A stretch of DNA of 32,000 nucleotides from contig OY969931.1 in the NCBI GenBank assembly GCA_963704705.1, forward strand, positions 1,170,001 to 1,202,000. The letters run 5' to 3'. This DNA comes from an uncultured bacterium. Its GTDB lineage: Bacteria > Patescibacteriota > Gracilibacteria > UBA1369 > PNNO01. Below, piece after piece: positions 13,214 to 27,744 of the stretch. Made by a program: the position numbers and the translations under genes. The notes beneath the pieces are model-generated. The model had not been told where the DNA came from. It did not search any database and saw only the letters and a program-made list of their open reading frames with translations. Each line of letters begins with the position of its first letter. Positions within the stretch are counted from its first letter, which is position 1.

Positions 13214-13314
13214 AAAAATATGTTAAAAATATGCACGCAGCATATCCAAACATTATTAAATATTTCTAAAAAAAACCTAAAATATGCTAAAGTACGCTAA
13301 GTAGGGAGTTAGCG
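13214..13314 (+). other. attI-like region with recombination point G|TTAGCG at 13308|13309
   Basis: Identity with the copy of cassette 1 at 30993 begins exactly at GTTAGCG (13308-13314). Inverted boxes CGCTAA (13295-13300) and TTAGCG (13309-13314) are separated by 8 nt. Upstream direct repeats are AAAATATGTTAAA (13214) and AAAATATGCTAAA (13279), with a palindrome ATATGCacgcaGCATAT at 13229-13245. Confidence 0.7.
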
Positions 13315-13318
13315 GAAA

Positions 13319-13347
13319 TTGGGCTGATTTTAAAAGCGACTTAATAT
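13319..13347 (+). promoter_or_regulatory. cassette-borne promoter candidate (cassette 1; repeated in cassette 28)
   Basis: TTGGGC, 17-nt spacer, TAATAT. It lies inside the cassette, so it travels with it (same sequence at about 31004-31032). Confidence 0.35.
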
Positions 13348-13378
13348 ATAATTCAAATAATTCTTAACCTAAAATTCT

Positions 13379-13957
13379 ATGAATCAAACATGGAAAATCA
13401 TTGTCGCCGTCATTATTACAGCAGTCGTTGTCGGAGGTGGCTTTTACTTCTGGCAACAGAGCAAGGAAGAAACTCCACAAGTTACTCGAAAAACCGAAGA
13501 TCAAACACCAGCTCCAGCAGCTGAAACCGAAAAAACGTTCACTGGTAGCGGATTTACATTCACATACCCCGTAGAATATACAGCTGATAACAAAGGACTT
13601 TGGACAACGGACGGTTATCAAAGACATATAAATCCGCCTGAAGCTTGCGATACCTGCCAGATACCAGAAGTAGAAGTAAAAGCCACCACTTCAAATAAAA
13701 CATTGGATCAACAAATTATTGCTGATTATGACTTGCCAGGAACAACACTGGCAGAGATGTCTAAACAAACTGGCATCAAATATGAGCAAATAAAAATCGG
13801 CGACAATGATTTTATCAAAATCACGGTTAGCGACATGTTCGATGTAACAGGATATTACACAAAACATAATAATCAGATTGTCGCTTTTAAAGTTTATTTG
13901 ACGGAAAAAGATAATAAGGCATTAAAAGATATTATTTCGACTTTGAAGTTTAATTAA
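13379..13957 (+). CDS. cassette 1 (13309-14086): membrane-anchored hypothetical protein (192 aa)
   Basis: N-terminal TM helix IIVAVIITAVVVGGGFYFW followed by a Pro/Thr/Glu-rich linker. The protein is identical to the ORF at 31064-31642. Confidence 0.7.
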   Translation: MNQTWKIIVAVIITAVVVGGGFYFWQQSKEETPQVTRKTEDQTPAPAAETEKTFTGSGFTFTYPVEYTADNKGLWTTDGYQRHINPPEACDTCQIPEVEVKATTSNKTLDQQIIADYDLPGTTLAEMSKQTGIKYEQIKIGDNDFIKITVSDMFDVTGYYTKHNNQIVAFKVYLTEKDNKALKDIISTLKFN

Positions 13958-13972
13958 AATCAGCCCAACATC

Positions 13973-14092
13973 AGCTAACAAAGGCTATGCGGCTACGATC
14001 CTTTCAGTCGCTACGCCCATATTGTGCGGTGGTGAGCCACTTCGCGGCCAATTATACCACCGCACAACATCGCATAGCCTTGGCCGTTAGCC
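13973..14092 (+). repeat. attC 1
   Basis: R'' AGCTAAC, R' GTTAGCC. L arms aaggctatgcg/cgcatagcctt. Inner stem tgtgcggtgg/ccaccgcaca. ATTATACCACC core. Confidence 0.85.
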
Positions 14093-14109
14093 GCCATTTT
14101 CATTCCCAC

Positions 14110-14137
14110 TTGAATTTTTATCAGATTTATTTATAAT
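14110..14137 (+). promoter_or_regulatory. cassette-borne promoter candidate (cassette 2)
   Basis: TTGAAT (14110-14115), 16-nt spacer, TATAAT (14132-14137), 27 nt upstream of the ATG at 14165. Confidence 0.5.
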
Positions 14138-14164
14138 TTATCTCTTAATTTATAATAATAAATT

Positions 14165-14456
14165 ATGAATACACCTGAAGGATTTCCAGTTGAATTATGT
14201 CCACCACACTATATAGATCATCAATTAGATAATACTCATAGAGACATTTGGATTACAGATGTTAGTGAACAAATATACAGAAGATGGATATTTTGTTGAA
14301 AACTTTCCACCTGAAATAAATGAAAGAGTATTTCAAGTTCGTGATGGTGTATCACGGGCAACACAATTTAAGGTACGTACACATCCTGAGAGAATTTATC
14401 GTGCAACTGATAATCCACATAAAACAGGATGGTGGGAATGTAATGTAGATAAATAA
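14165..14456 (+). pseudogene. cassette 2 (14087-14579): possibly frameshifted small gene
   Basis: The ATG at 14165 opens a 45-codon frame (MNTPEGFPVELCPPHY...) that stops at about 14300. A second frame, open from 14229, carries the 65-aa track ORF (14259-14456). The frames overlap and share one upstream promoter, which is consistent with a single gene broken by a 1-nt indel. Two small genes is the alternative. Confidence 0.35.
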
Positions 14457-14463
14457 AAACAGC

Positions 14464-14585
14464 GGCTAACAGGTGTATGTTCAGCTTCACTCGCTATGCT
14501 CGTTACGCCCATATTTTTGCAAGTGATGGCGCTTCGCGCTATTATACCACTTGCAAAAACATAGTACATACACCGGCCGTTGTAC
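14464..14585 (+). repeat. attC 2
   Basis: R'' GGCTAAC, R' GTTGTAC. L arms ggtgtatgt/acatacacc. Inner stem tttttgcaagtg/cacttgcaaaaa. ATTATACCAC core. Confidence 0.85.
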
Positions 14586-14656
14586 GAAATAGCAATGAGT
14601 TCTATCTTTGTGTAAATTTTAAGAAGCACCACTTGACTAATTGGTGATATAGTTGT

Positions 14657-14980
14657 ATGTTATCCCCCATTCATAATCATAAAACTATGAATTTTGGTAG
14701 CTATCGAGCTCGCGTCGCTATAGTAAGAGATATTAGCGAGTTCAAAACAATCAAAGATAGTAATAGAGCAGACAAACTAAATCAAGCTTTAAACAAGGGA
14801 AAAAGCAAAGTTGAACAAGCAAAAACTGATGCAGATATTGAACAAGCATGTAAAGAAACTTTTGAAGAAGTATTAAGAGTTTTTGAAGGTAGTGATGAAC
14901 ATGATGGTATGCGGGGCTTTGTTTTAGTGGATAGATTTCAAAGCGACGCTCACAATTGGTGGAATAATTCAAAGAATTAA
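14657..14980 (+). CDS. cassette 3 (14580-15152): hypothetical protein (107 aa)
   Basis: Intact ORF. A paralog at 29288-29611 differs by one residue (S35R). The true start may be the internal ATG at 14687. Confidence 0.6.
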   Translation: MLSPIHNHKTMNFGSYRARVAIVRDISEFKTIKDSNRADKLNQALNKGKSKVEQAKTDADIEQACKETFEEVLRVFEGSDEHDGMRGFVLVDRFQSDAHNWWNNSKN

Positions 14981-15004
14981 TAGTTATAAGCTCATTGCTA
15001 CATC

Positions 15005-15158
15005 GTACAACAGGCGCATTAACGGTTCGGGCTTTTTCTTGCGGCTGGCTTCGCACAGCCAAAAATCCCTCTCCCAACTTTTTTAACGGTGCTTTCATGC
15101 CTTGCGGCATGTTATTATACCACCGTCAAAAAGTTCGCTAATGCGCCAGACGTTGCAC
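15005..15158 (+). repeat. attC 3 (long type A)
   Basis: R'' GTACAAC, R' GTTGCAC. L arms ggcgcatta/taatgcgcc. Inner stem ttttttaacggtg/caccgtcaaaaa. ATTATACCACC core. Confidence 0.85.
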
Positions 15159-15437
15159 GCAATTGCACACACTCAAAAAAAACCGTAAGTCAATTTCTCG
15201 ACTTTCGCTTTTTTTGCGCCTGCGGCGGTTGTGTGTGCAACAACGTACAACAAACGTATATTCAACTCTCTTCTCTCTCATGTTTCATTTTCTTTTAATC
15301 AATTAAATAACTTAATAAATAAAAATAAATTTCACTACAAATAACCCGTTCGTCCAAATTAGGCTTCTCTCGCCGCGGTGATTGGGATATTATATCACCG
15401 CTTCTCGTTCAGCCTAACTTTGTATATACGTTGGACG
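15153..15437 (+). repeat. cassette 4: ORF-less 285-bp cassette, copy 1 of 3
   Basis: It starts at G|TTGCAC and ends at ...ttggacG|TT. There is an 82-bp body with an A8/T7-8-containing hairpin (ttgcacacac...gtgtgtgcaa). An attC-like part then carries an AT-rich insertion of about 110 nt. Near-identical to 15948-16231 and 17986-18269. Confidence 0.8.
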
Positions 15438-15443
15438 TTATAC
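15235..15443 (+). repeat. attC 4 (within ORF-less cassette)
   Basis: R'' GTGCAAC (15235-41) matches the cassette start TTGCAC. A tandem second box GTACAAC lies at 15244-50. R' GTTATAC. Arms acgtatat/atatacgt. Inner stems ttaggct/agcctaa and cgcggtgat/atcaccgc. Confidence 0.6.
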
Positions 15444-15467
15444 GCCACAAGAAAAAGAATATTGCAA

Positions 15468-15497
15468 TTGACAAAATTGCTATATTTATATTAATAT
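15468..15497 (+). promoter_or_regulatory. cassette-borne promoter candidate (cassette 5)
   Basis: TTGACA (15468-73), 18-nt spacer, TAATAT (15492-97), 25 nt upstream of the ATG at 15523. Confidence 0.45.
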
Positions 15498-15522
15498 CTC
15501 TTTCCTATAACCAATCTATATT

Positions 15523-15936
15523 ATGAGAAGCAGAACACCTATTTGTGATAGGAACAAAAGAGAGCTTGCAATATGCAATGAAGCGCTTGATACAGGATCA
15601 TTTGGAGAATCTTTAATTAAATTAAAGCCATCGGAACTCGACTCGCTTCTAGATAACTTTCATCTTGCTATTACTTTATTTATGGATAGATTGGATTGTG
15701 AAAGGGCGATGAATTTAAAAACCGTAACGCTCGCGTCGGAACTGCATATAATGAATTATTGGAAGCTAAAAAAGGTAATTAACTCCTTTTTCTTGCAGCG
15801 CATAACAGGCGCATTAACGGTTCGGGCTTTTTTTGCGGCTGGCTTTCGCACACCCAAAAATCCCTCACCCAACTTTTTTAACGGTGGTTCCATGCCTTAC
15901 GGCATGATATTATACCACCGTCAAAAAGTTCGCTAA
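15523..15936 (+). CDS. cassette 5 (15438-15947): hypothetical protein; the ORF reads into its attC
   Basis: 137-aa ORF with no stop before the attC. The last 45 or so codons are translated attC sequence, and the stop TAA lies in the L' arm (gcTAAtgcgcc). Confidence 0.5.
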   Translation: MRSRTPICDRNKRELAICNEALDTGSFGESLIKLKPSELDSLLDNFHLAITLFMDRLDCERAMNLKTVTLASELHIMNYWKLKKVINSFFLQRITGALTVRAFFAAGFRTPKNPSPNFFNGGSMPYGMILYHRQKVR

Positions 15937-15953
15937 TGCGCCGGACGTTGCAC
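15800..15953 (+). repeat. attC 5 (type A)
   Basis: R'' GCATAAC, R' GTTGCAC. L arms ggcgcatta/taatgcgcc. ATTATACCACC core. Confidence 0.85.
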
Positions 15954-16231
15954 GCAATTGCACACACTCAAAAAAAACCGTAAGTCATTTCTCAACTTTC
16001 GCTTTTTTTTGCGCCTGCGGCGGTTGTGTGTGCAACAACGTACAACAAACGCATATTCAACTCTCTTCTCTTTCATGTTTCATTTTCTTTTAACCAATTA
16101 AATCACTTAATAAATAAAAATAAATTCACTACAAATAACCCGTTCGTCCAAATTAGGCTTCTCTCGCCGCGGTGATTGGGATATTATATCACCGCTTCTC
16201 GTTCAGCCTAACTTTGTATATGCGTTGGACG
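15948..16231 (+). repeat. cassette 6: ORF-less cassette, copy 2 of 3
   Basis: Same 284-bp unit as 15153-15437. Bounded by G|TTGCAC and ggacG|TT. Confidence 0.8.
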
Positions 16232-16237
16232 TTATGT
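16030..16237 (+). repeat. attC 6 (within ORF-less cassette)
   Basis: R'' GTGCAAC (16030-36), R' GTTATGT (16231-37). Same architecture as attC 4. Confidence 0.6.
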
Positions 16238-16342
16238 GTAATAGCGAAAAGAAAAATGTTGCACATTTTCAATATTTTTGGTAATTTACGTTTATAATTG
16301 CGCACAACCTCATCTAATTCATTATCTTATTAGAAATCAGTT

Positions 16343-16609
16343 ATGAGAGATACAATAAGCGGTTCAAACGAACCTAAACCAGAAAAACCTCCTCTTCATT
16401 CATTGGAACAGTGGGAGTTGTCTAACAGAATTTCGCATGAAACGGGCTGTAATAGTGAACAATTGAAGTGGATCGAAGATCGAATGAATGAATTAAATGT
16501 GGGTGAAAGTTTTGAATGGACCTCAGAAACACAACAAGTGATCACAATTACAAAGGTAGAAGAAAAATTTTACAAGTTAGACTTTCCTCAAAATTACAAA
16601 CGATCGTAA
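16343..16609 (+). CDS. cassette 7 (16232-16794): hypothetical protein (88 aa)
   Basis: Intact ORF followed by a terminator-like hairpin. No motif recognised. Confidence 0.55.
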   Translation: MRDTISGSNEPKPEKPPLHSLEQWELSNRISHETGCNSEQLKWIEDRMNELNVGESFEWTSETQQVITITKVEEKFYKLDFPQNYKRS

Positions 16610-16630
16610 ACGCAAATTACCAAAAATATA

Positions 16631-16660
16631 CGACCGCCTTTAAGGGGCGGTCGTTGCTTT
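16631..16660 (+). terminator. rho-independent terminator candidate inside cassette 7
   Basis: 8-bp GC-rich stem cgaccgcc/ggcggtcg with a 7-nt loop, followed by TTGCTTT. It lies 22 nt after the ORF stop. Confidence 0.5.
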
Positions 16661-16670
16661 ACGCTACTAC

Positions 16671-16800
16671 GCATAACACTGGACATGCGGTTCGGGTTAT
16701 CCCCGAAAGACCTTATGCAAATTGAAAAACCCCGCTCTTTTTGATAAAATTGATTAAGGAAGGGGGGTTTTTCAACTTCGCATGTCCAGGAACGTTATGT
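16671..16800 (+). repeat. attC 7 (divergent type)
   Basis: R'' GCATAAC, R' GTTATGT. L arms ctggacatgcg/cgcatgtccag. Inner stem gaaaaacccc/ggggtttttc. It lacks the ATTATACC core. Confidence 0.8.
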
Positions 16801-16912
16801 GAAATAGCCAGAAATTTCTTAATTATTTTTTAGATTTTTTTGGCAATTTATTTCAACGGTCGACATAACTTATGATATAATTTAGTCAGTTTAATATTTA
16901 ACCAAAATAACT

Positions 16913-17161
16913 ATGGAATCACCAGAACAAGGGTTTAACCCACAAGAACATACACGCTGGGCAAAACAGCGGGCACTTGAACTATTAGAAAACGGAGATC
17001 TTATGCAGGCAATTGACTCAATGGTAAGTGATTTAGGTAAAGATCCTACGCGCCCGCCTGAACAAGTGAGAATGCTTACTATGATGGGCATGATTACAAG
17101 AAATGATCCCGCATTAGATGAAAAGAAAGTACGCGAGTTTATTGAAGGGTTTGCTGAATAA
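16913..17161 (+). CDS. cassette 8 (16795-17399): hypothetical protein (82 aa)
   Basis: Intact ORF. No motif recognised. Confidence 0.55.
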   Translation: MESPEQGFNPQEHTRWAKQRALELLENGDLMQAIDSMVSDLGKDPTRPPEQVRMLTMMGMITRNDPALDEKKVREFIEGFAE

Positions 17162-17204
17162 ATTGCCAAAAAAAGAATAAGGAATAGAAATTTCTGGCTA
17201 CATC

Positions 17205-17405
17205 ACATAACAGCGTGTATCTGGCTACGGAAAATTGGCGTTAATTAAACCCTTAAGGAATGCTAATTTTCCTCCGCCCAAATCCCGCACTAATTTTTGT
17301 GGGTTTTGGATGGAGAGCGTGTATAAAAGTGTTCGTAATAATTTTTAACATTATCTTTTACCAACAAAATTAGTGCGGGACTTCAGATACACGCAAACGT
17401 TAGCC
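17205..17405 (+). repeat. attC 8 (201 bp, divergent type)
   Basis: R'' ACATAAC, R' GTTAGCC. L arms gcgtgtatctg/cagatacacgc. Inner stem cccgcactaatttt/aaaattagtgcggg. Confidence 0.8.
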
Positions 17406-17490
17406 GCCATTCAATATTAGTTATGTATTTGTTATTTATGGCTTTTTGTTGTATAATATATACGTATTATATAATTAACAACTTATATAT

Positions 17491-17835
17491 ATGAATCCTT
17501 TAGAATCCTCTTTTTATGAAGAAGAACACAGTGAAATCGATAATTTAAATAAAGCAATTGAAGATAGTTTGGCAACAACAGTAATTGAAGCTGCTCAAAA
17601 CAGGTCACCTGAAGAAGCTAGAAAAGTGTTTAAAGCGAGCTTAGTTATTAATAGGATTTTTAATAATGTATTATTTGATGCTCGCGCAGATGGAACATCT
17701 GTATCAGATTTACCGACTTTACAGGGTATGATTGATGATTATGTTGCAAAACTTAATTTTGATTCATCGATATTAAGTAATTCTGTTGAAAAATTTCATA
17801 AATTAGCTGTTGAACTAGCTAAAGAAGAAATGTAA
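17491..17835 (+). CDS. cassette 9 (17400-17985): hypothetical protein (114 aa)
   Basis: Intact ORF preceded by an AT-rich leader containing TATAAT (ttgttgTATAATat). No motif recognised. Confidence 0.55.
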   Translation: MNPLESSFYEEEHSEIDNLNKAIEDSLATTVIEAAQNRSPEEARKVFKASLVINRIFNNVLFDARADGTSVSDLPTLQGMIDDYVAKLNFDSSILSNSVEKFHKLAVELAKEEM

Positions 17836-17843
17836 TAGAAAGC

Positions 17844-17991
17844 GGCTAACAGGCGCATATAAGGTTCACTTCGCTTCGCTCGCTCACCCAAAAAAGCTAC
17901 ACTCGTCTCGGTGGTGAGCACGCTTATAAGCGTGACATTTTACCACCTCGTCTCGTTTCGCATTTCTTCTTATATACGCCGGACGTTGCAC
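17844..17991 (+). repeat. attC 9
   Basis: R'' GGCTAAC, R' GTTGCAC. L arms ggcgcatataag/cttatatacgcc (1 mismatch). Apical palindrome cacgcttataagcgtg. Confidence 0.8.
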
Positions 17992-18269
17992 GCAATTGCA
18001 CACACTCAAAAAAAACCGTAAGTCATTTCTCGACTTTCGCTTTTTTTTGCGCCTGCGGCGGTTGTGTGTGCAACAACGTACAACAAACGCATATTCAACT
18101 CTCTTCTCTTTCATGTTTCATTTTCTTTTAACCAATTAAATCACTTAATAAATAAAAATAAATTCACTACAAATAACCCGTTCGTCTAAATTAGGCTTCT
18201 CTCGCCGCGGTGATTGGGATATTATATCACCGCTTCTCGTTCAGCCTAACTTTGTATATGCGTTGGACG
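17986..18269 (+). repeat. cassette 10: ORF-less cassette, copy 3 of 3
   Basis: Same 284-bp unit as 15948-16231. Bounded by G|TTGCAC and ggacG|TT. Confidence 0.8.
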
Positions 18270-18275
18270 TTGTAT
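18068..18275 (+). repeat. attC 10 (within ORF-less cassette)
   Basis: R'' GTGCAAC (18068-74), R' GTTGTAT (18269-75). Same architecture as attC 4. Confidence 0.6.
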
Positions 18276-18309
18276 GATATAATCAAATAAATTCTTTAAC
18301 ATTGTAAAC

Positions 18310-18777
18310 ATGAAAAAGTTTGTACTGGGACTAACAGTTGGAATAATCGTTGCAATTGCGCCAGCAGTTTATGCAATGATCGTTCCTCCGGTAAATTTTA
18401 CTGATGTCAGCCAAAACGATTGGTATTATACTCCCGTAACACAATTGGCTACCATGGGTATTATTAATGGTTATTCCGATGGATCGTTTAAACCTACAAA
18501 TTCAATCAACAGGGCTGAAACTGCTAAACTTATTTATGCACTTTATGAGCAACTTAACGATAGTAGCAAAGTGGCGGATTTAGAAAATAGAATTGAAATT
18601 TTAGAGACTCAGATGAGCACATTAAGTTTACCGGGAGACTGCTATTATAATAATACTTGGTATTCAACCGGGGATACGGTTCCACAGGATAATGTTTGCG
18701 AAACAGATGTTTGTGGTCCTGGGTCTTGTACATGTCAAGATGATGGAAGTCTTGCGCAATGTGCAATAACCTACTAA
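18310..18777 (+). CDS. cassette 11 (18270-18923): secreted/anchored SLH-domain protein (155 aa)
   Basis: N-terminal signal/TM segment. FTDVSQNDWYYTPVTQLATMGIINGYSDGSFKPTNSINRAETAKLI fits the S-layer-homology consensus. A short coiled coil and a Cys-rich C-terminus follow. Confidence 0.65.
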   Translation: MKKFVLGLTVGIIVAIAPAVYAMIVPPVNFTDVSQNDWYYTPVTQLATMGIINGYSDGSFKPTNSINRAETAKLIYALYEQLNDSSKVADLENRIEILETQMSTLSLPGDCYYNNTWYSTGDTVPQDNVCETDVCGPGSCTCQDDGSLAQCAITY

Positions 18778-18796
18778 AAGCTAATTTGATTACATC

Positions 18797-18929
18797 ACAC
18801 AACAGCTGATTATGCGGTTCCACTCGCCTATCGGCTCGTTTCACCCAACTTTTCAAACGGTGGTTGCACGTCTGGCGACGTGATATTATACCACCGTCAA
18901 AAAGTTCGCATAGTCAGCGGACGTTAGGC
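18797..18929 (+). repeat. attC 11
   Basis: R'' ACACAAC, R' GTTAGGC. L arms gctgattatgcg/cgcatagtcagc (1 mismatch). Inner stem ttttcaaacggtgg/ccaccgtcaaaaa. ATTATACCACC core. Confidence 0.85.
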
Positions 18930-19015
18930 GATATTATTTTATTAAGGTATTTAATGTCTACAAGCTTTACAAGATAATTATTTTATGTATAATTATTTCC
19001 TTTAATAAATATATT

Positions 19016-19225
19016 ATGACTCGACCTAAATTAGATAAAGATCCAAAACTAAAAAGAAGTGAAAGGCTAACTGCTTTTATTGATGAAGAAAGTATGAAAA
19101 GGATTCAATGGGCAGCATTCGTTACAAAGAAATCTATTGGAGAAGTTCTTGGTGATTTGATTATGAAGAATATAAAAGAACCGCCAAAGGAAATAGATGA
19201 AGATCCATTTTTACATGAAGAATAA
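19016..19225 (+). CDS. cassette 12 (18924-19369): small RHH/CopG-like protein (69 aa), tentative
   Basis: The pattern RSERLTAFIDEESMKRIQWAAFVTKKSIGEVLGDLI looks like a beta-strand/helix/helix ribbon-helix-helix layout. Judged by eye only. Confidence 0.4.
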   Translation: MTRPKLDKDPKLKRSERLTAFIDEESMKRIQWAAFVTKKSIGEVLGDLIMKNIKEPPKEIDEDPFLHEE

Positions 19226-19229
19226 CATC

Positions 19230-19375
19230 GCCTAACAGCAAACTATCCGGTTCAGCCTTTTTTGATGCGCGGCTTTGCACGCGCAAAAGGCTTCACCCAA
19301 CTTTTTTTGCAATGGTGGCGCTGACGCGCTATTATACCATCGCAAAAAAGTTCGTATAGTTTGCGGCCGTTGTGT
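19230..19375 (+). repeat. attC 12 (type B)
   Basis: R'' GCCTAAC, R' GTTGTGT. L arms gcaaactat/atagtttgc. Inner stem ctttttttgcaatgg/ccatcgcaaaaaag. ATTATACCATC core. Confidence 0.85.
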
Positions 19376-19409
19376 GAAATAAATCTGTCGCCACTTAATC
19401 TAAAAATAT

Positions 19410-19850
19410 ATGGCTAAAGAAGACAAAGAACATTGCATATTCTGCAAAATCATCGCCGGCAAATCACCGGTAAGTATAGTATACGAAGATGATAGAGTTA
19501 TAGTATTCCCTCCACTTCAACCAGTAAACAAAGGCCATCTGCTCGTAATTCCTAAAAAACATGCACCTTATTTAGCCGATATTGATGAAGATACAGCTAT
19601 GTACGTCATGAAAATTGCAAAAAAAATTGCAGCAGGAATAAGAAAATCTAAATTTAAAAGTGAAGGAGTGAATCTGTTCCTCGCAGATGGCGAAGCTGCA
19701 CACCAAGAAGTCTTCCATCTACACCTACATGTTTATCCAAGATATGCCGGCGATGATTTTGACTTCAAATATGATTTAGAAAAACACTTTGTTAAAATGC
19801 AACGCTCTGAGTTAGATGAGGTAGCAAAAGAAATAAAAGATCATTTATAA
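19410..19850 (+). CDS. cassette 13 (19370-19991): HIT-family nucleotide hydrolase/transferase
   Basis: 146 aa. CIFCKII N-terminus and histidine triad HLHLHVYP. Confidence 0.9.
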   Translation: MAKEDKEHCIFCKIIAGKSPVSIVYEDDRVIVFPPLQPVNKGHLLVIPKKHAPYLADIDEDTAMYVMKIAKKIAAGIRKSKFKSEGVNLFLADGEAAHQEVFHLHLHVYPRYAGDDFDFKYDLEKHFVKMQRSELDEVAKEIKDHL

Positions 19851-19873
19851 AAGATTGGCTCCAGATTTACATC

Positions 19874-19997
19874 ACACAACAGCAAACTATCCGGTTCAGC
19901 TCCTTAAAGTCGCTTCACCCAACTTTTTTTGCAACGGTGGCGCTGACGCGCTATTATACCATCGCAAAAAAGTTCGTATAGTTTGCGGACGTTAGAC
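19874..19997 (+). repeat. attC 13 (type B)
   Basis: R'' ACACAAC, R' GTTAGAC. L arms gcaaactat/atagtttgc. ATTATACCATC core. Confidence 0.85.
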
Positions 19998-20015
19998 GCC
20001 ATTGGGCTTTTTCTT

Positions 20016-20693
20016 TTAAGCGGCTTTCGACAAGGCTTGAAGGACTTTTTGCGAATCTGTTACCCAACCAAAAATCCCACCTTGGGCTTTTATAATTTCT
20101 AAAGCAGAACGGTGGCGATCTTCGTCATAAGCCGCCATACAATCCGCGAGGACAATTGCATTAAATCCACGGTCATTTGCCCCAGAAACCGTAGTTGAAC
20201 AACAAACATCAGTGGTCACACCAGCCACGAGTAAATTTATAATACCCCGCTCTTTCAAAACTGCCTCTAAGTCAGTCTTGTAAAAAGCGTTTTTGCCTGG
20301 TTTATCAATTACAAGTTCATCAGGCAACGGGGCGACTTCATCAATAATTCCGTGACCTTCTTCACCTCGAATTAAAATTCGTCCCATTGGTCCTTGATCT
20401 CCAATACGTCGCCCTTCTGGCCATCGAGTCAGTTTTGTTGCGGGGCAATCACTCAAGTCGGGCAAATGACCTTCTCTTGTATGGATTATAAGCATAGCTC
20501 TTTCTCGAAAAGCTCGAATTATCTTCTGAATTGGTGCAATTGTCCTCGCTAACAAATCAACATCATTTCCCAAGGACTCACCGTATCCACCATGTCGCAA
20601 AAAGTCCTTCTGCATATCAATCACGATCAAAGCAGTTTCCTCGAGTTTTACGTCGATAGGAGTAGGTTCTGCTTGTATGTTTACATTAGTCAT
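20016..20693 (-). CDS. cassette 14 (19992-20906): isochorismatase-family cysteine hydrolase (amidohydrolase), reverse orientation
   Basis: 225 aa. ALIVIDMQKDF (Asp), DKPGKNAF (Lys) and VAGVTTDVCC (Cys) give the catalytic-triad pattern. It is on the opposite strand to the array. A candidate own promoter on the minus strand is TTGCGC-N17-TATAGT at about 20715-20743. Confidence 0.85.
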   Translation of the reverse strand: MTNVNIQAEPTPIDVKLEETALIVIDMQKDFLRHGGYGESLGNDVDLLARTIAPIQKIIRAFRERAMLIIHTREGHLPDLSDCPATKLTRWPEGRRIGDQGPMGRILIRGEEGHGIIDEVAPLPDELVIDKPGKNAFYKTDLEAVLKERGIINLLVAGVTTDVCCSTTVSGANDRGFNAIVLADCMAAYDEDRHRSALEIIKAQGGIFGWVTDSQKVLQALSKAA

Positions 20694-20774
20694 AAGCCAC
20701 TTAATTAAAAAGAGGGCGAACTATAACATAGAAAAAGAAAAAGCGCAACCAGCTTTCGCTTCGCTTCAGCTGGC

Positions 20775-20912
20775 GCCTAACACGGCATGTGCGGTTCGGG
20801 CTTCTTTTCGGCTGGCTACGCACAGCCTCAAAGCCCTCACCCATATTTGCCACTGCTACCGCTGCGCGATATTATAGCAGTGGCAAACATCGCACATGCC
20901 GGAACGTTATGT
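20775..20912 (+). repeat. attC 14
   Basis: R'' GCCTAAC, R' GTTATGT. L arms cggcatgtgcg/cgcacatgccg. Inner stem tttgccactgct/agcagtggcaaa. ATTATAGCAG core variant. Confidence 0.85.
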
Positions 20913-20945
20913 GACATCCATTTTTTCTTATTGTAGAATAACGAC

Positions 20946-21514
20946 ATGGAAAAAGAACCAATTACACCGATTGAAATAGTAAAAGCAGATATTAAACTTT
21001 TTGAAAAATATCAAAAAGAAATTTTGGAAATCGAAAGAGAACTTATCGAAAATAGTTCATCAGCATATCTTATTGATGAACAAGATGAGCTCGATTTTAT
21101 GTTAGATGCGTTTAAAAAAGGAGGTTATGCTTATTTAGTAATGGAAAATGAAAAAGTTACTGGGTTTTTAGTTGTTGGGCCACTCGATGATGGGACTGAA
21201 TTGCCTGAAACAGATACTCAAAATTATCCAATTGCAAATTGCCTTCATATCAAAGTAATGTACATAAAAAATACAAGCAAAGGAATTGGTAGTGAAATGA
21301 TGGAAAAATTAATTCAAGAACTAGATAAAGAACAATGGAAATATTTATTTGTAAGAACTTGGATTGATCCACCAAATGAAGGAGCATTAATTTTTATACA
21401 AATCGAGCTGGCTTTGAAGCTGTTCCAAATGCAATAGTTGAATCAACAAAAAGAAAATTGAATGGAAGTGGAACACTCCAAATAAAAAGACAATATTTTT
21501 CAAAAAGGATATAG
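20946..21514 (+). pseudogene. cassette 15 (20907-21678): frameshifted GNAT acetyltransferase
   Basis: Same gene as 30259-30828, but gaaggagcATTAATT replaces gaaggagcTATTAATT (1-nt deletion near 21388). The frame changes just before the AINFYTNRAGF motif and gives a 163-aa truncated product. Confidence 0.8.
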
Positions 21515-21528
21515 AAAAAATGGACATC

Positions 21529-21684
21529 ACATAACAGGCGCATTAACGGTTCGGGTTTTTTTTGTCGGGCGGCCTAAAGCACGCCCAAAAATCCCTCACC
21601 CAACTTTTTTAACGGTGGTGACATGCCTTGCGGCATGTTATTATGCCACCGTCAAAAAGTTCGCTAATGCGCCGGACGTTAGGC
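21529..21684 (+). repeat. attC 15 (type A)
   Basis: R'' ACATAAC, R' GTTAGGC. L arms ggcgcatta/taatgcgcc. ATTATGCCACC core. Confidence 0.85.
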
Positions 21685-21706
21685 GGCATCTCTTAATCAA
21701 TCTATT

Positions 21707-21928
21707 ATGAAATTATATACAAAAATATTGTTAGCATTATTTATTGGAATAGTTCTCACCTTACTTTCAATATCATATAAATCATCTTATGAATTTCATG
21801 TACTTGAATACAGTAGTTATGAAACACGACCTTCCTGGGGATTCCCTTTGCAGTATGTATACGATAATGATGTTAGCTCACCAGTAATGTCAATGAATAA
21901 GAAGATACATTCATTTTTACATATATGA
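21707..21928 (+). CDS. cassette 16 (21679-22108): small membrane protein (73 aa), followed by an overlapping 25-aa TM ORF
   Basis: N-terminal TM helix ILLALFIGIVLTLLSI. A second ORF (21925-22002, MIGDVLIYSFLAFIPFLIFKKRDTA) starts in an ATGA stop/start overlap and stops inside R''. This is either a coupled pair or one frameshifted gene. Confidence 0.5.
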   Translation: MKLYTKILLALFIGIVLTLLSISYKSSYEFHVLEYSSYETRPSWGFPLQYVYDNDVSSPVMSMNKKIHSFLHI

Positions 21929-21996
21929 TTGGGGATGTATTAATTTACTCATTTTTGGCTTTCATACCATTTTTAATATTTAAAAAAAGAGACACC

Positions 21997-22114
21997 GCCT
22001 AACAGCAAACTATCCGGTTCCGCTCCTTGCAGTCGCTACACCCAACTTTGCCAGTGGTGGCGCTTCGCGCTATTATACCACTGTCAAAGTTCGTATAGTT
22101 TGCGGACGTTGTGC
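21997..22114 (+). repeat. attC 16 (type B)
   Basis: R'' GCCTAAC, R' GTTGTGC. L arms gcaaactat/atagtttgc. ATTATACCACT core. Confidence 0.85.
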
Positions 22115-22208
22115 GCCATTTTCGTTATTCTTTTGTTAATTATTTTACCCTTGACGCGGCAGACGTATTATGCTTTTATTAACTCCTTAATTCTTAATAT
22201 AATTAATT

Positions 22209-22548
22209 ATGAAGATTACTGAGAATTGGTCTGATGGGCACCATGAAACTGAAAAAGGAGAAGTCATGACATATAATTTTAATATACGAATTGTATAGTC
22301 TGCACCGTCAAGTATAGGACAAATAAAAAAGCGTGAAAGTAATTTGGTTGTTCAACAATGCGAATTACGACAAGCAATCTCCGAAGGTAGACTTGATGAT
22401 GCTTTAACAATTGGAACTAATGTTGAAGACGCTTTTGCAAAAAGATAGAAAGAAACCTGAGTGTAATGCGTTTAATCATCTAAAAGTATTACGAGCAGGT
22501 ATACGGGGAAAAATAGAGCAACTAAAAACCGAAGAAAGAACTATTTAG
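22209..22548 (+). pseudogene. cassette 17 (22109-22690): decayed gene, no intact ORF
   Basis: The ATG at 22209 opens a frame interrupted by two in-frame TAG codons (codon 30 and about codon 78). Coding-like sequence then continues in another frame to TAG at 22546. No ORF of 60 aa or more in any frame. Confidence 0.4.
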
Positions 22549-22572
22549 CTATCAAAAAATAACGAAAACTGC

Positions 22573-22696
22573 GCACAACAGCAAACTATCCGGTTCAGCT
22601 CCCTTCGCTCGCTTCACCCAACTTTTTTTGCAATGGTCGCGCTATCGCGCTATTATACCATCGCAAAAAAGTTCGTATAGTTTGCAGACGTTAGGC
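22573..22696 (+). repeat. attC 17 (type B)
   Basis: R'' GCACAAC, R' GTTAGGC. L arms gcaaactat/atagtttgc. ATTATACCATC core. Confidence 0.85.
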
Positions 22697-22734
22697 GAAA
22701 TGGCGACAACTAACAACAACATTTAAGATAATTT

Positions 22735-23229
22735 ATGACAATTTTTTTCGACATCCATCAAAACAAAGTTGAATTACCCCCGAATGAAAAAATTTTTTGG
22801 CGTATTTCTTCATACACAATCGTAGAACACAAAGGTAAAATTTTGGTTCTCAAACCACAATATGACACAAGTAAGTGGATTCTTCCTGGAGGTGGCATCG
22901 AAACAAATGAATCCATTGCTCAAGGGATAGAGAGAGAGTGCTATGAAGAAACTGGCTACAAAATCAAAGTCGATGCCACTCATCCTATTCACGTAGGAGA
23001 ATCAAACCTTTACCTAGAAAATGAGAAAAAATTTTTTCATTCTCTCAACTTCATATATGAAGCAAAACTATTAAGTGAAGACCAAAATAAAAAAATGATC
23101 AATTCAATAGAAACCGAAGAAGTAGAAAAAGTAGATTGGATTCCATTAGAAGAAATAAATGAAAAAAATTGTCACCACATCATGTATCCAGCAATTGAAA
23201 ATTATAAAAAGTGTCGCCACATCGCCTAA
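22735..23229 (+). CDS. cassette 18 (22691-23337): Nudix hydrolase
   Basis: 164 aa. Nudix box GGGIETNESIAQGIERECYEETGY fits GX5EX7REUXEEXGU. The stop TAA lies inside R'' (GCCTAAC). Confidence 0.9.
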   Translation: MTIFFDIHQNKVELPPNEKIFWRISSYTIVEHKGKILVLKPQYDTSKWILPGGGIETNESIAQGIERECYEETGYKIKVDATHPIHVGESNLYLENEKKFFHSLNFIYEAKLLSEDQNKKMINSIETEEVEKVDWIPLEEINEKNCHHIMYPAIENYKKCRHIA

Positions 23230-23343
23230 CACAGAATATGCGGTTTCGCTCCCGTTGGTCGCTACACCCATATTTGCTGGTGGTGGCTCACTTCGTTCGC
23301 TATTATACCACCAGCAAACATCGCATATTCTGGAACGTTGTGT
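23224..23343 (+). repeat. attC 18
   Basis: R'' GCCTAAC, R' GTTGTGT. L arms cagaatatgcg/cgcatattctg. Inner stem tttgctggtgg/ccaccagcaaa. ATTATACCACC core. Confidence 0.85.
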
Positions 23344-23377
23344 GAAATAAATCTGTCGCCACTTAATCTAAAAATAT

Positions 23378-23818
23378 ATGGCTAAAGAAGACAAAGAACA
23401 TTGCATATTCTGCAAAATCATCGCCGGCAAATCACCGGTAAGTATAGTATACGAAGATGATAGAGTTATAGTATTCCCTCCACTTCAACCAGTAAACAAA
23501 GGCCATCTGCTCGTAATTCCTAAAAAACATGCACCTTATTTAGCCGATATTGATGAAGATACAGCTATGTACGTCATGAAAATTGCAAAAAAAATTGCAG
23601 CAGGAATAAGAAAATCTAAATTTAAAAGTGAAGGAGTGAATCTGTTCCTCGCAGATGGCGAAGCTGCACACCAAGAAGTCTTCCATCTACACCTACATGT
23701 TTATCCAAGATATGCCGGCGATGATTTTGACTTCAAATATGATTTAGAAAAACACTTTGTTAAAATGCAACGCTCTGAGTTAGATGAGGTAGCAAAAGAA
23801 ATAAAAGATCATTTATAA
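23378..23818 (+). CDS. cassette 19 (23338-23959): HIT-family hydrolase, duplicate of cassette 13
   Basis: Protein identical to 19410-19850. Both cassettes are 622 bp, and the only difference I saw is one base in the attC (caaCggtgg vs caaTggtgg). Confidence 0.9.
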   Translation: MAKEDKEHCIFCKIIAGKSPVSIVYEDDRVIVFPPLQPVNKGHLLVIPKKHAPYLADIDEDTAMYVMKIAKKIAAGIRKSKFKSEGVNLFLADGEAAHQEVFHLHLHVYPRYAGDDFDFKYDLEKHFVKMQRSELDEVAKEIKDHL

Positions 23819-23841
23819 AAGATTGGCTCCAGATTTACATC

Positions 23842-23965
23842 ACACAACAGCAAACTATCCGGTTCAGCTCCTTAAAGTCGCTTCACCCAACTTTTTTTGC
23901 AATGGTGGCGCTGACGCGCTATTATACCATCGCAAAAAAGTTCGTATAGTTTGCGGACGTTGTAC
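23842..23965 (+). repeat. attC 19 (type B)
   Basis: R'' ACACAAC, R' GTTGTAC. Otherwise as attC 13. Confidence 0.85.
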
Positions 23966-24027
23966 GCCATATTTTTTTGTGCTAGTATCATATCTTATTA
24001 AATTGAATCCAACTAATAACTATACAA

Positions 24028-24369
24028 ATGAAATTAAGAAGCAATCCAAAGGGAGATCCGGAGCTGCCTATGCCTTACATCGAAGGGCTGACAGTTGATG
24101 AGGCAATTCCAGTTATTATTGCTGTGCTAGAAAAAATTGATAACCGAGATGAGCCAGTAATTTATGGCATGCAAGGTATTAACACCGTCAACCAACTTAT
24201 AAAAGCAATCCGAACTAAATCACCACAAGGACTAGAAATGCTCTCTCTCTGGAGACGCGCTGAAGCTCGTATAAAAGAGCGAGAAGGTCAAAAAGATGGC
24301 AGCCCTTCGTTCCTTAGCGAATTAAGGAATAAATTAGGAGATGCTCTAAAAAAAATAACAGGCAGATAA
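24028..24369 (+). CDS. cassette 20 (23960-24551): hypothetical protein (113 aa)
   Basis: Intact ORF. No motif recognised. Confidence 0.55.
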   Translation: MKLRSNPKGDPELPMPYIEGLTVDEAIPVIIAVLEKIDNRDEPVIYGMQGINTVNQLIKAIRTKSPQGLEMLSLWRRAEARIKEREGQKDGSPSFLSELRNKLGDALKKITGR

Positions 24370-24405
24370 AAGCACAAAAAATACACTCTCACTTCGTTCG
24401 TTGGC

Positions 24406-24557
24406 GTACAACAGGCGCATTAACGGTTCGGCTTTTTTTGCGGCTGGCTTCGCACAGCCAAAAATCCCTCACCCAACTTTTTTAACGGTGGTGGCATGTC
24501 TGGCGACATGATATTATACCACCGTCAAAAAGTTCGTTAATGCGCCGGACGTTAGGC
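24406..24557 (+). repeat. attC 20 (type A)
   Basis: R'' GTACAAC, R' GTTAGGC. L arms ggcgcatta/ttaatgcgcc. ATTATACCACC core. Confidence 0.85.
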
Positions 24558-24560
24558 GAC

Positions 24561-24660
24561 ATATTTTTGAAAAATTTGATTTTAAAATGTTTTTGGTGAG
24601 CTTTAAGAAATAAGGAATTTGATTTTTTTAATTTTTAAAGAGGGGGGGGGGTAAAAGGTG
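24561..24660. repeat. IR-L of the RM module (G-rich copy, contains G10 at 24642-24651)
   Basis: tatttttgaaaaattt...gtttttggtgagcttt...gaatttgattttttt...aaagaggggggggggt is an imperfect inverted copy of 27098-27204. The core motif AATTTGATTTTT...AGAGGGG is shared with 27787-27825 and 28571-28625. Confidence 0.7.
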
Positions 24661-24694
24661 TTTTCTCCGCTATCGCTCCAAAAACGAATTTTAA

Positions 24695-24723
24695 TTGGAA
24701 AAAAGCAAAAAGTTTTATATACT
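24695..24723 (+). promoter_or_regulatory. promoter candidate for the RM gene
   Basis: TTGGAA (24695-700), 17-nt spacer, TATACT (24718-23). RBS AAAGAGG lies 5 nt before the ATG at 24755. Confidence 0.45.
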
Positions 24724-24754
24724 TAAATTAGTTTTAACTTATTAAAGAGGTAAT

Positions 24755-27082
24755 ATGGCAAACGAAAGAAAAACCGAAATAATCACAAGAGACCATTTTT
24801 CCAAATTTTTGGATTCTATTTATATTGAAGAACAACGCTCAGATAATCCAAAAATTGATAAGTTGTTAAAATCTGCCTCAAAAAAAGGCGGTGGAAAAGG
24901 TTATCCAGAATTTATCATCAGCTACAAAACTAATCCTGATTTACTGATTGTTATTGAATGTAAAGCAGATGTAACAAAACACGAAAGCAAAGATCACGAT
25001 AAATATTCAGAGTTTGCTGTTGATGGTGCTTTACTTTATGCCTCTTATTTATCAAAGGGCTTTGATGTTTTAGCAATTGCAGTTAGCGGAGAAACAAAGC
25101 AGTCTCTAAAAATTTCTCATTTTTTACATTTGAGAGACGAGAAAAAAGCAACTCCAATTTTTAGCGATAAATTTTTGTCAGTTGACGATTATTTAAACGG
25201 ATATTTGAAAAGCCCTGAAAAATTTAGACAAGATTATAATTCGCTTTTAGATTTCACAAAACAACTTAATGAAAAATTGCATGGTTATAAAATTCTTGAG
25301 AGCCAAAGGAGTTTGCTTATTAGTTCAATTTTAATTGCCTTAGAAAATGTTGCTTTCAAAAGATCATATGCTTCGCACAAAAAAGCTGAAAATCTTGCAG
25401 TTTCTCTAATTCAAACAGTTTCCGATGAATTGGAAAGTGCAAACATCACAGGGAAGAAACTTGAAAACTTGAATACTCAATTCAGCTTTATTAAAACGGA
25501 TACATCTTTATCAAAAAAAGAAAATGTTTTGAAAGAAATTATTGATGAAATTGACGAAAATATAAATGCTTTTATCAAAACTCACAGATATTTTGACGTA
25601 TTGGGACAGCTTTATATTGAATTTTTGAGATACGCAAATAGTGACAAGGGGCTAGGAATTGTTTTAACGCCCCCGCACATCACAGAGCTTTTTGCGGACT
25701 TAGCACAAGTCAATAAAAACTCTATCGCTTATGACAATTGTACGGGAACAGGCGGGTTTTTGATTAGTGCAATGAAAAAAATGATAGCAGACGCAAAAGG
25801 CGATGAATCAAAAATCAAAGAAATAAAATCAAAACAGCTTATCGGAACGGAATATCAATCGCATATTTTTGCTTTGGCGGTTTCAAACATGTACATTCAC
25901 CAAGACGGAAAAACAAATATCATAAATGGCAGTTGTTTTGATGAGGAAATTATTGAAGATGTAAAAACTAAAAAACCAACAGTTGGTTTTTTGAATCCTC
26001 CCTACAAAGACAAAAAGGGAGATACTGAAGAGTTAGAATTCGTGCTTAATAATTTAGAATGTTTAGTTGATGGTGGCGTATGCGTGGCTATAATTCCACT
26101 AAGTTCAGTCATTGCACAAAATGGCATTAAGCTTCAGCTAAAAGAAAAACTACTACAAAATCATACATTAGAAGCCGTCTTGTCAATGCCAGAAGATCTT
26201 TTCCATAATTCAAAAGTTTCGCCTGTTTCTGTCGTTGTTGTCTTTACCGCCCATAAACCACATCCTGTGGGTAAAAAAACATGGTTAGGCTATTTTAGAA
26301 ATGATAATTTTGTAAAAACCAAAGACAAAGGACGTATAGACTTATTGGGAACATGGGAAGAAATAAAAAAAGAATGGCTTACATTATATTTTAATAGAGA
26401 AACAAAAAAAGACATAAGTTTGACGAGAGAATTAAAACCACAAGATGAGTGGTGCATAGAGGCATATTTAACATATGATTATAGTAAAATTACTGAGTAT
26501 AAACTTAAAGATAAAATACAAAAATATTTAGCATTTCGCTTACTTCACGATTTACTTGATTTTAAAATTGATAAACCAAATAAACTTAAAAATGATAACA
26601 AAGTAGTTCCATTGCATGAGATTTTTGATGTAAAAAATGGATTAGCATCTTCAAATGTAGAGGTATTAGAATCTCCTGAAAGTCCTTCTGATATTAGATA
26701 TATTAGACCATCTCAAACTTACGAAGGAAGTATTGCTGGATACGTAGATAAGACATTTATAGACGATAAATACATTTATCCTGACAATACGCTATATGTT
26801 TCTACAGATGGGCAAGGAAGTCATACCTATTCGTATGTTTCATCTTTTGAATTTATCCCAAACAGCAATGTTTCTGTGTTAATGCCTAAAAGAGAAATGT
26901 CCGTACAAGAAAAAATATATTATGCACTTTGCATTTCAAGCAATAGATACAAGTTTTCTTATGGCAGAAAGCCTAAAGGCGATAGATTAAAAGATATATT
27001 TTTACCTTTGTATCCGCCTGAATATGTTCACGGTGATATTTTTAATGAAATCTTTGATAATTGGAAAAAAATAGTAAAATAA
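24755..27082 (+). CDS. cassette 21 (24552-27341): single-chain restriction-modification enzyme (Type IIG-like): N-terminal PD-(D/E)xK-like domain, gamma-class N6-adenine methyltransferase, C-terminal TRD
   Basis: 775 aa. SAM motif I YDNCTGTGGFL and motif IV FLNPPY. The N-terminal NPDLLIVIECKAD resembles the HSDR_N/PD-ExK nuclease motif. The C-terminal 170 or so aa (VPLHEIFDVKNGL...RLKDIFLPL) resemble a single HsdS-type target-recognition domain. The methyltransferase call is strong; the nuclease call is tentative. Confidence 0.75.
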   Translation: MANERKTEIITRDHFSKFLDSIYIEEQRSDNPKIDKLLKSASKKGGGKGYPEFIISYKTNPDLLIVIECKADVTKHESKDHDKYSEFAVDGALLYASYLSKGFDVLAIAVSGETKQSLKISHFLHLRDEKKATPIFSDKFLSVDDYLNGYLKSPEKFRQDYNSLLDFTKQLNEKLHGYKILESQRSLLISSILIALENVAFKRSYASHKKAENLAVSLIQTVSDELESANITGKKLENLNTQFSFIKTDTSLSKKENVLKEIIDEIDENINAFIKTHRYFDVLGQLYIEFLRYANSDKGLGIVLTPPHITELFADLAQVNKNSIAYDNCTGTGGFLISAMKKMIADAKGDESKIKEIKSKQLIGTEYQSHIFALAVSNMYIHQDGKTNIINGSCFDEEIIEDVKTKKPTVGFLNPPYKDKKGDTEELEFVLNNLECLVDGGVCVAIIPLSSVIAQNGIKLQLKEKLLQNHTLEAVLSMPEDLFHNSKVSPVSVVVVFTAHKPHPVGKKTWLGYFRNDNFVKTKDKGRIDLLGTWEEIKKEWLTLYFNRETKKDISLTRELKPQDEWCIEAYLTYDYSKITEYKLKDKIQKYLAFRLLHDLLDFKIDKPNKLKNDNKVVPLHEIFDVKNGLASSNVEVLESPESPSDIRYIRPSQTYEGSIAGYVDKTFIDDKYIYPDNTLYVSTDGQGSHTYSYVSSFEFIPNSNVSVLMPKREMSVQEKIYYALCISSNRYKFSYGRKPKGDRLKDIFLPLYPPEYVHGDIFNEIFDNWKKIVK

Positions 27083-27097
27083 GGAGTTTTGAAAAAT

Positions 27098-27204
27098 GGA
27101 ATTCACCCCCAGCCCCTCTTCCATTTTTCAAAACAAAAAAATCAAATACAATAATAAAAAGCCCACCAAAAACGGAATAATATGGATAAATTTTTCAAAA
27201 ATAC
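27098..27204. repeat. IR-R of the RM module (C-rich copy)
   Basis: The reverse complement reads gtatttttgaaaaattt...gtttttggtgggcttt...gtatttgattttttt...gaagaggggctgggggtgaattcc, matching 24561-24660 block by block. Confidence 0.7.
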
Positions 27205-27249
27205 GCAAGGCACGTTGCACTCTCACTCCGCTATCGCTCCGTTCGGCTC

Positions 27250-27347
27250 GCCTAACACAGTATATGCGGTTCGCTCGTTGCACTTCGCTCTCCCATATTT
27301 TGCTCCGTTTCACTCCGCAAAACATCGCATATACTGAAACGTTGTAG
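27250..27347 (+). repeat. attC 21 (short, 98 bp)
   Basis: R'' GCCTAAC, R' GTTGTAG. L arms cagtatatgcg/cgcatatactg. Short apical stem ttttgc/gcaaaa. It lacks the ATTATACC core. Confidence 0.8.
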
Positions 27348-27394
27348 AAAGCCACTTTTCCTATAAACTAATGATCTAATAATTAACTAATAAA

Positions 27395-27571: not shown

Positions 27572-27585
27572 TAAAAGTGGCCATC

Positions 27586-27737: not shown

Positions 27738-27744
27738 GAAATAC

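Follow-up and report, generated by a model that had tools for sequence, protein, structure and literature searches.

A near-identical copy of a distal cassette at the attI site of a Patescibacteria cassette array whose adjacent recombinase lacks the I2 insertion

The locus described here combines a long array of gene cassettes with a divergently oriented gene for a tyrosine recombinase (Table 1). It lies in a stretch of 32,000 nt, which we call the window, taken from a contig of 1.37 Mb that belongs to a Peribacteria-like genome of the Patescibacteria. The window opens with a helicase gene, which is followed by an A/V-type ATPase operon ending in subunit D and then by a 131-aa ORF. In the operon, just upstream of the integron (3262-12002), gene sizes and Pfam matches fit the order I, K, E, C, F, A, B, D. 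The integron site is syntenic in a Peribacteria metagenome-assembled genome (L001, 1753-10545), where it also lies next to ATPase subunit D and where the 131-aa ORF (12013-12408) is missing. Beyond the recombinase gene and a short spacer the array begins, and it runs on past the end of the window.

Table 1. Features of the locus, in window coordinates
Feature	Position	Strand	Remarks
Tyrosine recombinase gene, 273 aa	12392..13213	-	divergent from the array; XerA-like and IntI-like, no I2 insertion
Spacer between recombinase gene and attI	13214..13311	.	conserved with L001 and L002 up to ...GCTAAGTAGGGAGTT
Array of 28 cassettes	13309..31769	+	covariance-model attC hits; runs on past the window end
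Cassette 1 (c1), attI-proximal copy, 778 nt	13309..14086	+	alignment, attC model
Cassette 1 ORF, 192 aa	13379..13957	+	N-terminal hydrophobic segment; weak, sub-threshold PsbP_2 match
attC of cassette 1	13973..14092	+	R'' AGCTAAC, R' GTTAGCC
Cassettes 2-4, between c1 and c5	14087..15437	+	15437 is the G of the GTT box of c5
attC of cassette 27	30843..30999	+	left junction of the distal copy (ccggacG↓TTAGCGG)
Cassette 28 (c28), distal copy, 776 nt	30994..31769	+	alignment, attC model
Cassette 28 ORF, 192 aa	31064..31642	+	protein identical to that of the cassette 1 ORF
attC of cassette 28	31658..31775	+	R'' AGATAAC; loop GCCC at 31720-31723 instead of AGCCAC

An R'' box complementary to the start of its own cassette is a signature of integron cassettes, which circularise through G↓TT. 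The attC sites were located with a covariance model built from 18 aligned repeats and searched with filters off. This model counts exactly 28 sites in the window, all on the + strand, and the count agrees with an earlier reading of the same DNA (the sequence-only reading), which had numbered the distal copy discussed below as cassette 28. All 28 sites share one box form, starting with RYYYAAC (R'') and ending with GTTRRRY (R'). R'' is the exact reverse complement of the first seven bases of its own cassette in 17 of the 28 cassettes and matches at six of the seven positions in nine; a match of only 5/7 is found in two, c26 and c28. The 18 aligned repeats describe a branched structure that covaries strongly, with compensatory changes in 16 of 21 pairs. 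In its stems 92% of the cells are paired, compared with 70% in shuffles (0/500 reach the observed value) and 32-47% when the partners are slid against each other. Folds of the bottom strand have a branched stem and, between R' and L', a conserved asymmetric bulge of 3-4 nt (GGC/GGMC); extrahelical G/T bases of the canonical kind did not show in these folds. The sites of the window (for example 19874-19997) are three-way branched and have conserved unpaired motifs, namely an A that follows R'', GGMC ahead of R', and CCCA in the junction. The CCCA motif is kept in 44 attC sites from distant relatives, and TATTATACCA is found in the close group only. Ordinary attC sites have little that is conserved outside the R boxes. 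An Rfam scan of the window returned no family at gathering score.

The cargo of the array is typical of cassettes and includes GNAT, HIT, NUDIX, isochorismatase and SLH proteins, a 775-aa methylase and unknowns. Cassette 21 (24552-27341) is unusually large with 2790 nt; its 775-aa protein has an N6 DNA methylase domain and its attC is short (98 nt). The ORFs of c2, c15 and c29 look frameshifted or truncated next to their counterparts in other assemblies or in the duplicate cassette. In c2 (14166-14456) the frame is split into 43 + 65 aa here, against 96 aa in a long ENA contig (L007); the GNAT protein of c15 (20946-21437) has 163 aa, against 189 aa in c27 (30259-30828) and in L009; c29 (31833-31905) has an early stop, against 81 aa in a short-read contig (L008). 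These odd ORFs reflect either genuine decay of the genes or indel errors left in the sequence.

Two of the cassettes, the first and the 28th, are nearly the same. An exact local alignment of the window identifies 13308-14089 and 30993-31772 as one cassette in two places, with 99.49% identity over 778 columns (BLAST). This bears out what the sequence-only reading had claimed for the pair, except that its inclusive coordinates were off by one; the lengths it gave, 778 and 776 bp, are right when each cassette is counted from TT to G. With about 780 nt at 99.5% identity chance likeness is no issue. The encoded proteins are identical, as had been stated (192/192 aa), and their family occurs in CPR bacteria only. 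Both of the base substitutions that had been named are present: T at 13942 against A at 31627, which is synonymous, and C at 13975 against A at 31660, which falls in R''. The reported 2-nt indel in the attC loop has to be corrected, since c28 indeed misses two bases, but as two separate single-base differences (A14035 and A14039). The attI-proximal copy has the better match between R'' and the reverse complement of its own cassette start, again as had been noticed, with 6/7 in c1 and 5/7 in c28. On the bottom strand the attC of c1 folds at -34.0 kcal/mol (z = -5.8), and that of c28 at -31.7 kcal/mol, where the A in R'' reduces the predicted R-box helix from 7 to 5 bp. Because the C at 13975 keeps the complementarity between R'' and cassette start, and because L007 and L008 carry it as well, the A in the R'' of c28 is the derived state.

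Outside the cassette the likeness ends abruptly. To the left of the shared G the flanks of c1 and c28 are identical at 10/60 positions, with no exact run continuing past the G, and to the right, past the shared GTTA, they are identical at 17/60 positions; beyond the end G only TTA is held in common. Shared identity upstream of the GTT box was looked for and is absent, in line with the earlier description of the two upstream sequences as unrelated. The left boundary of c1 is unusually sharp because its left neighbor is attI and not another attC. We thus confirm c1 as a cassette-precise second copy of c28.

The attI site itself can be placed by comparison with relatives. The crossover triplet GTT lies at 13308-13310, 95 nt from the start codon of the recombinase. 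A genome scan with the recombinase returned L001 (79% aa identity) and a Patescibacteria single-cell genome (L002, 73%); both encode 273-aa recombinases and have attC matches in the same divergent arrangement. The spacers of the window, L001 and L002 share 85% column identity up to ...GCTAAGTAGG(G/T)AGTT, and right after AGTT different cassettes begin, with GTTAGCGG in the window, GTTGTACG in L001 and GTTGTGTG in L002. Since the spacer is common to the three up to AGTT, beyond which they differ, the insertion point is confirmed independently. Taken together with the c1/c28 alignment, whose identity starts at the G, this confines the crossover, which had been described as pinned, to the three bases of GTT. 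Such a position agrees with the canonical G↓TT, at the resolution of the triplet and not of a single bond. A search for the exact attI pattern in the JGI metagenomes gave 0 matches. Within the spacer lies a palindrome, ATATGCACGCAGCATAT (13229-13245), which L001 shares in full and L002 almost in full; it may serve as an operator or as a site to which the recombinase binds. The sequence-only reading had further supposed that expression is highest at position 1. This idea is borrowed from class 1 integrons and finds no support here, as a consensus scan of the + strand from 13000 to 13308, which may not suit a CPR host, detected no sigma-70-like promoter reading into c1. The same scan assigns c2 a promoter-like site of its own (14110-14137).

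The pair c1 and c28 is not the only duplicate in the array. An all-against-all comparison of the 28 cassettes yields seven duplicated families, each at full length: c1 and c28 (99.5%), c3 and c25 (99.0%), c4, c6 and c10 (96.9-99.3%), c12 and c26 (94.2%), c13 and c19 (99.8%), c15 and c27 (99.4%), and c16 and c24 (89.4%). In the six further families identity ends at most 8 nt from G↓TT on both sides. The order of the copies is scrambled, with c24-c28 matching c16, c3, c12, c15 and c1, respectively. Because the copies are not collinear, segmental duplication and unequal crossing-over do not explain the duplicates. One might still think of homologous recombination, unequal crossing-over or gene conversion between attC repeats that proceeds with no site-specific step, the more so as the attC sites of the array are 60-99% alike. 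However, attI and attC27, the left neighbors of the two copies, are dissimilar (9/40 identical), and the duplicates are single cassettes that are neither collinear nor tandem, so that we give this explanation hardly any credence. Cassettes are duplicated elsewhere in this integron family too, and not in metagenome assemblies alone: the single-cell genome L002 contains a 482-bp duplicate (8063-8544 and 5164-5645) that is 100% identical and attC-bounded. The position in the array had also been considered as a clock, with divergence rising from c1 (0.5%) over c3 (1.0%) to c4 (3.1%). This was dropped, because the numbers of differences are too low and c13/c19, at 0.16%, runs against the trend. As the divergence of c1 and c28 (4 events in 778 nt) is no smaller than that of c13 and c19 (1 in 622), array position gives no clean age order.

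Independent assemblies provide a view of the same cassette in other contexts. The exact cassette-1 protein is present on two further contigs, L007 and L008. The first starts exactly at the G of GTTAGCGG, equals c1 at 778/778 positions and continues collinearly through c2-c19 with 98.3% identity. The second, a Logan contig from ERR11571143, has the same G start, carries the c1 allele at all variant sites and then continues into c29. Thus, both right-hand contexts exist outside this assembly, with c2 next in L007 and c29 next in L008. The exact c28 state in the population is uncertain, since in L008 it is the c1 allele that stands in the c29 context. Unique parts of the window match two other Logan contigs from ERR11571143 (L010 and L012) at 100%. 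L012 is 100% identical over 1829 nt (window 11483-13311), including the recombinase gene and attI. Past attI it shares GTTA and then reads GTTATACGCCACAAG..., which is the start of c5, and its positions 1826-1855 equal window 15437-15466. This contig therefore skips c1-c4, among which c1, c3 and c4 are duplicates of deeper cassettes. Three readings of this junction are possible. Recombination between attI and attC4 may have deleted c1-c4, a copy of c5 may have been pasted ahead of c1, or L012 may represent the state before the insertion of c1-c4, the last being a poor fit with the 3% divergence of c4 from c6 and c10. Whichever reading applies, position 1 is polymorphic, and this supports recent activity of a recombinase. 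The earlier proposal that the system is or recently was active is therefore strengthened, both by the six additional cassette-bounded duplicate families and by the attI-c5 junction.

The assemblies also bear on the question whether the duplicate is real. Among the independent assemblies the junction of attI with c1 was not found, and the only independent attI junction is that with c5. A look-up of contigs that encode the 273-aa recombinase gave no match, and the 263-aa form led to L012 only. The proteins of c21, c23 and c27 as queries returned only short Logan contigs that are broken at cassette ends. From the short reads we rely on two things only, the existence of k-mers that join attI to c5 and the join of the cassette-1/28 unit to c29; taking the exact ends of L008 and L012 as proof of junctions in ERR11571143 would over-read the cleaning of the de Bruijn graph, and this argument was dropped. 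The attI-c1 junction or the second copy could be an assembly artefact or a chimera of co-existing strains, as attI is followed by c5 in the short-read contig L012, whose background is 100% identical, and as c2, c15 and c29 differ from other assemblies in a frameshift-like manner. We nevertheless regard this as very improbable. The copies differ, which a single sequence entered twice would not do, each of the right junctions recurs in an independent assembly, and two assemblies break exactly at the shared G, as two left contexts predict. The 100% matches of unique window regions to short-read contigs, the length of the source contig and the four differences between c1 and c28 together make a simple assembly duplication unlikely.

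A different origin of c1 would be its capture at attI from an external pool, either a circle or DNA of a related cell, and not from the c28 of its own array. The four positions at which the copies differ would agree with such a capture, as would the observation that L007 and L008 carry the c1 allele and never the c28 allele, and homologues of the cassette gene circulate in other Patescibacteria. However, the four differences can postdate the duplication, and three of the four cassettes ahead of c5 (c1, c3 and c4) have deeper copies in the array, for which internal reshuffling is the simplest explanation. External capture therefore seems unlikely to us. The sequence-only reading had proposed excision of a distal cassette copy and its reinsertion at attI, or replicative capture. 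The core of this proposal is supported, while the c28 of this genome is an unproven donor.

We consider it likely that c1 is a copy of c28, or of its unmutated ancestor, that arose by integrase-mediated replicative excision and reinsertion at attI. In such a scheme attC27 and attC28 would be exchanged on folded single strands, and replication would resolve the product, so that a circular copy is set free and the original stays in one of the daughter arrays. The attC of the circle would then recombine with attI within the GTT triplet of an array still holding the distal copy, and the former first cassette, c2, would move to position 2. The four differences between c1 and c28 would have arisen later. 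Both steps have precedents. Cassettes are excised and inserted through the bottom strand of attC in its folded form, and replication is needed to resolve the junction; one daughter therefore retains the array, and reinsertion of the circle yields a duplicate (PMC3458562). Among the rearrangements in experimental evolution, the copy-and-paste of a distal cassette into the first position was the most frequent (PMC8024014). At the locus described here identity spans the whole cassette and ends at GTT on the left and at GTTA on the right, and the left flanks, attI and attC27, share no homology that could drive homologous recombination. With attI on one side and attC27 on the other as left boundaries, the pair has the footprint of an attI x attC insertion with the donor cassette retained, as had been proposed. 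The boundaries are precise to the cassette, one copy sits at attI, duplicates recur along the array and attI is polymorphic; the single-strand replicative route would be one that fits these observations. All features of a copy-and-paste duplicate are present, the attI position of copy 1 being seen in the window only.

The direction, from position 28 to position 1, is likely as well. Taken by itself the DNA is symmetric in this respect, and c1 keeps the better R''/R' complementarity, as would be expected if the attI-proximal copy were the older one and c28 had come from insertion of a circle by attC x attC recombination. Against this reversed order, insertion is strongly biased towards attI in characterised integrons (PMC8024014). 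In addition, c24-28 all copy upstream cassettes in scrambled order and would need five distal insertions. We therefore judge the reversed direction to be highly improbable. Cassette duplication is a known integron outcome that recurs seven times in this array; its main value lies in showing that the array is being reshuffled, and more weight falls on the recombinase system around it. The copy-and-paste described for mobile integrons (Souque et al. 2021, PMC8024014; Loot et al. 2012, PMC3458562) likewise places a distal cassette at position 1 while the original is kept, has its boundaries at the attI/attC crossover, and is explained with its retained donor by replicative resolution. Unlike in those integrons, the event is here deduced from sequence, and the array is chromosomal with at least 28 cassettes in a CPR bacterium.

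The enzyme that might catalyze these events differs from known integron integrases. All catalytic residues of the 273-aa recombinase are present (R134, K159, H223, R226, H249 and Y258). It scores 200.9 bits against NF040815 (XerA_Arch, NCBIfam; cutoff 220) and 185.5 bits against TIGR02249 (integron integrase; cutoff 265), thus below both, and by score it is no member of the XerA equivalog. TIGR02249 and PRK15417 match it in two pieces, with profile positions ~184-250 skipped. With the Pyrococcus XerA structure the recombinase aligns end to end, and its residues 12-~197 and 198-273 align to residues 11-~200 and 242-317 of VchIntIA (2A3V). Absent is the region of the I2 helix, ~45 residues (VchIntIA ~196-241). 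In an AF2 model (pLDDT 88) no more than a short linker, residues 180-199, occupies this place, and the model fits XerA and VchIntIA about equally well. In published work the I2 domain is treated as defining, as necessary for cassette capture and as unique to integron integrases; experiments with IntI1 found that activity depends on it, and it is considered to enable the recombination of folded single-stranded attC sites (PMC7790495). The locus thus has a divergent adjacent recombinase, an attI at G↓TT and the attC boxes of an integron, but not the I2 domain, and the sequence-only reading, which had assumed an ordinary integron, does not hold in this point. This speaks against the proposed mechanism. 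With the helix missing that the literature regards as necessary for attC recombination, the reaction would have to proceed differently in its details or be the work of another enzyme.

In comparison with known systems the recombinase is both XerA-like and IntI-like. Archaeal XerA (PDB 4A8E and 5HXY; NF040815) is the best match in sequence and fold, collinear over the full length and of similar size (about 270-290 aa). Unlike XerA, the recombinase stays below the cutoff of 220, has a ...KSPL tail as in VchIntIA and is tied to attC arrays and not to a known dif site. With VchIntIA (PDB 2A3V, TIGR02249) it shares an alignable N-terminal SAM_4 domain, catalytic domain and C-terminal SPL tail, and a gene that is divergent from attI and array; in contrast to VchIntIA it lacks the ~45 residues of the I2 helix region and scores 185.5 against 265. 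The array resembles the Vibrio cholerae superintegron in being large, in its homogeneous, species-specific attC family, in its many duplicates and in its typical cargo. It differs from that superintegron in the missing IntI-specific domain of the recombinase, in its host, a Patescibacteria genome of 1.37 Mb, and in attC sites that are branched, about 120-200 nt long and marked by a conserved unpaired GGMC bulge and CCCA.

Relatives of the recombinase are common. At E<1e-20 it has more than 5000 matches of ~270 aa, most of them Patescibacteria proteins, and none of 22 family members compared (259-295 aa) contains the I2 insertion. The missing I2 is thus not a local deletion. A survey with the attC model of the window covered 80 metagenome loci (L013-L092) with recombinase relatives of 44-74% identity. 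It gave 66 attC matches, all upstream of the recombinase gene and 65 of them on the opposite strand; none was found downstream in the 80 loci, though the downstream sequence was larger. Where at least 1 kb of upstream DNA was available, 32 of 41 loci had an attC match. The chain in which R' of cassette n is the reverse complement of R'' of cassette n+1 holds in distant arrays too. In 39 of the 80 loci the metagenome contig extends for less than 1 kb beyond the recombinase gene on its upstream side; contig ends at this place would be expected if repeated attC arrays routinely break short-read assemblies. A full-text literature search returned nothing relevant on integrons in Patescibacteria, CPR or Parcubacteria, although they may still be reported, and no report of such an I2-less integron family was found in the searchable literature.

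It is quite possible, if somewhat short of probable, that the 273-aa I2-less XerA-like recombinase is the working integrase of this array and, with its relatives, forms an integron family that extends across Patescibacteria. This adjacent enzyme would then be the catalyst of the copying step. Recognition of attC might then occur via the conserved GGMC bulge and the CCCA motif instead of I2, and the family could be a pre-I2 or an I2-independent form of the integron. What the locus offers is a family of I2-less recombinases tied to bona fide cassette arrays, with duplicates and attI polymorphism as the best available evidence of activity. If this reading is true, cassette capture by attI x attC recombination and copy-and-paste occur naturally without a domain that is held necessary for them. 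A working adjacent enzyme would make the locus a natural test system for the need for I2 and for the origin of integrons from Xer-like ancestors. In that case standard integron finders would score such loci as attC clusters without an integrase, and integrons of the CPR would hence be undercounted.

A homologue of the cassette-1 gene, 83% identical, is located at 9939-10654 of a 365-kb Patescibacteria contig (L094), outside any detected array. No R1-type attC is present at this homologue, and the contig was therefore dropped as an aid to placing the cassette in another array. The likeness at the DNA level spans window 13319-14011 and includes AGCTAAC and a much shorter hairpin, and a 15-bp direct repeat, GTTTGGTGGATGAGG, flanks the unit. 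The unit may stem from the insertion of a single cassette at a secondary site, or it may hint at the origin of the cassette.
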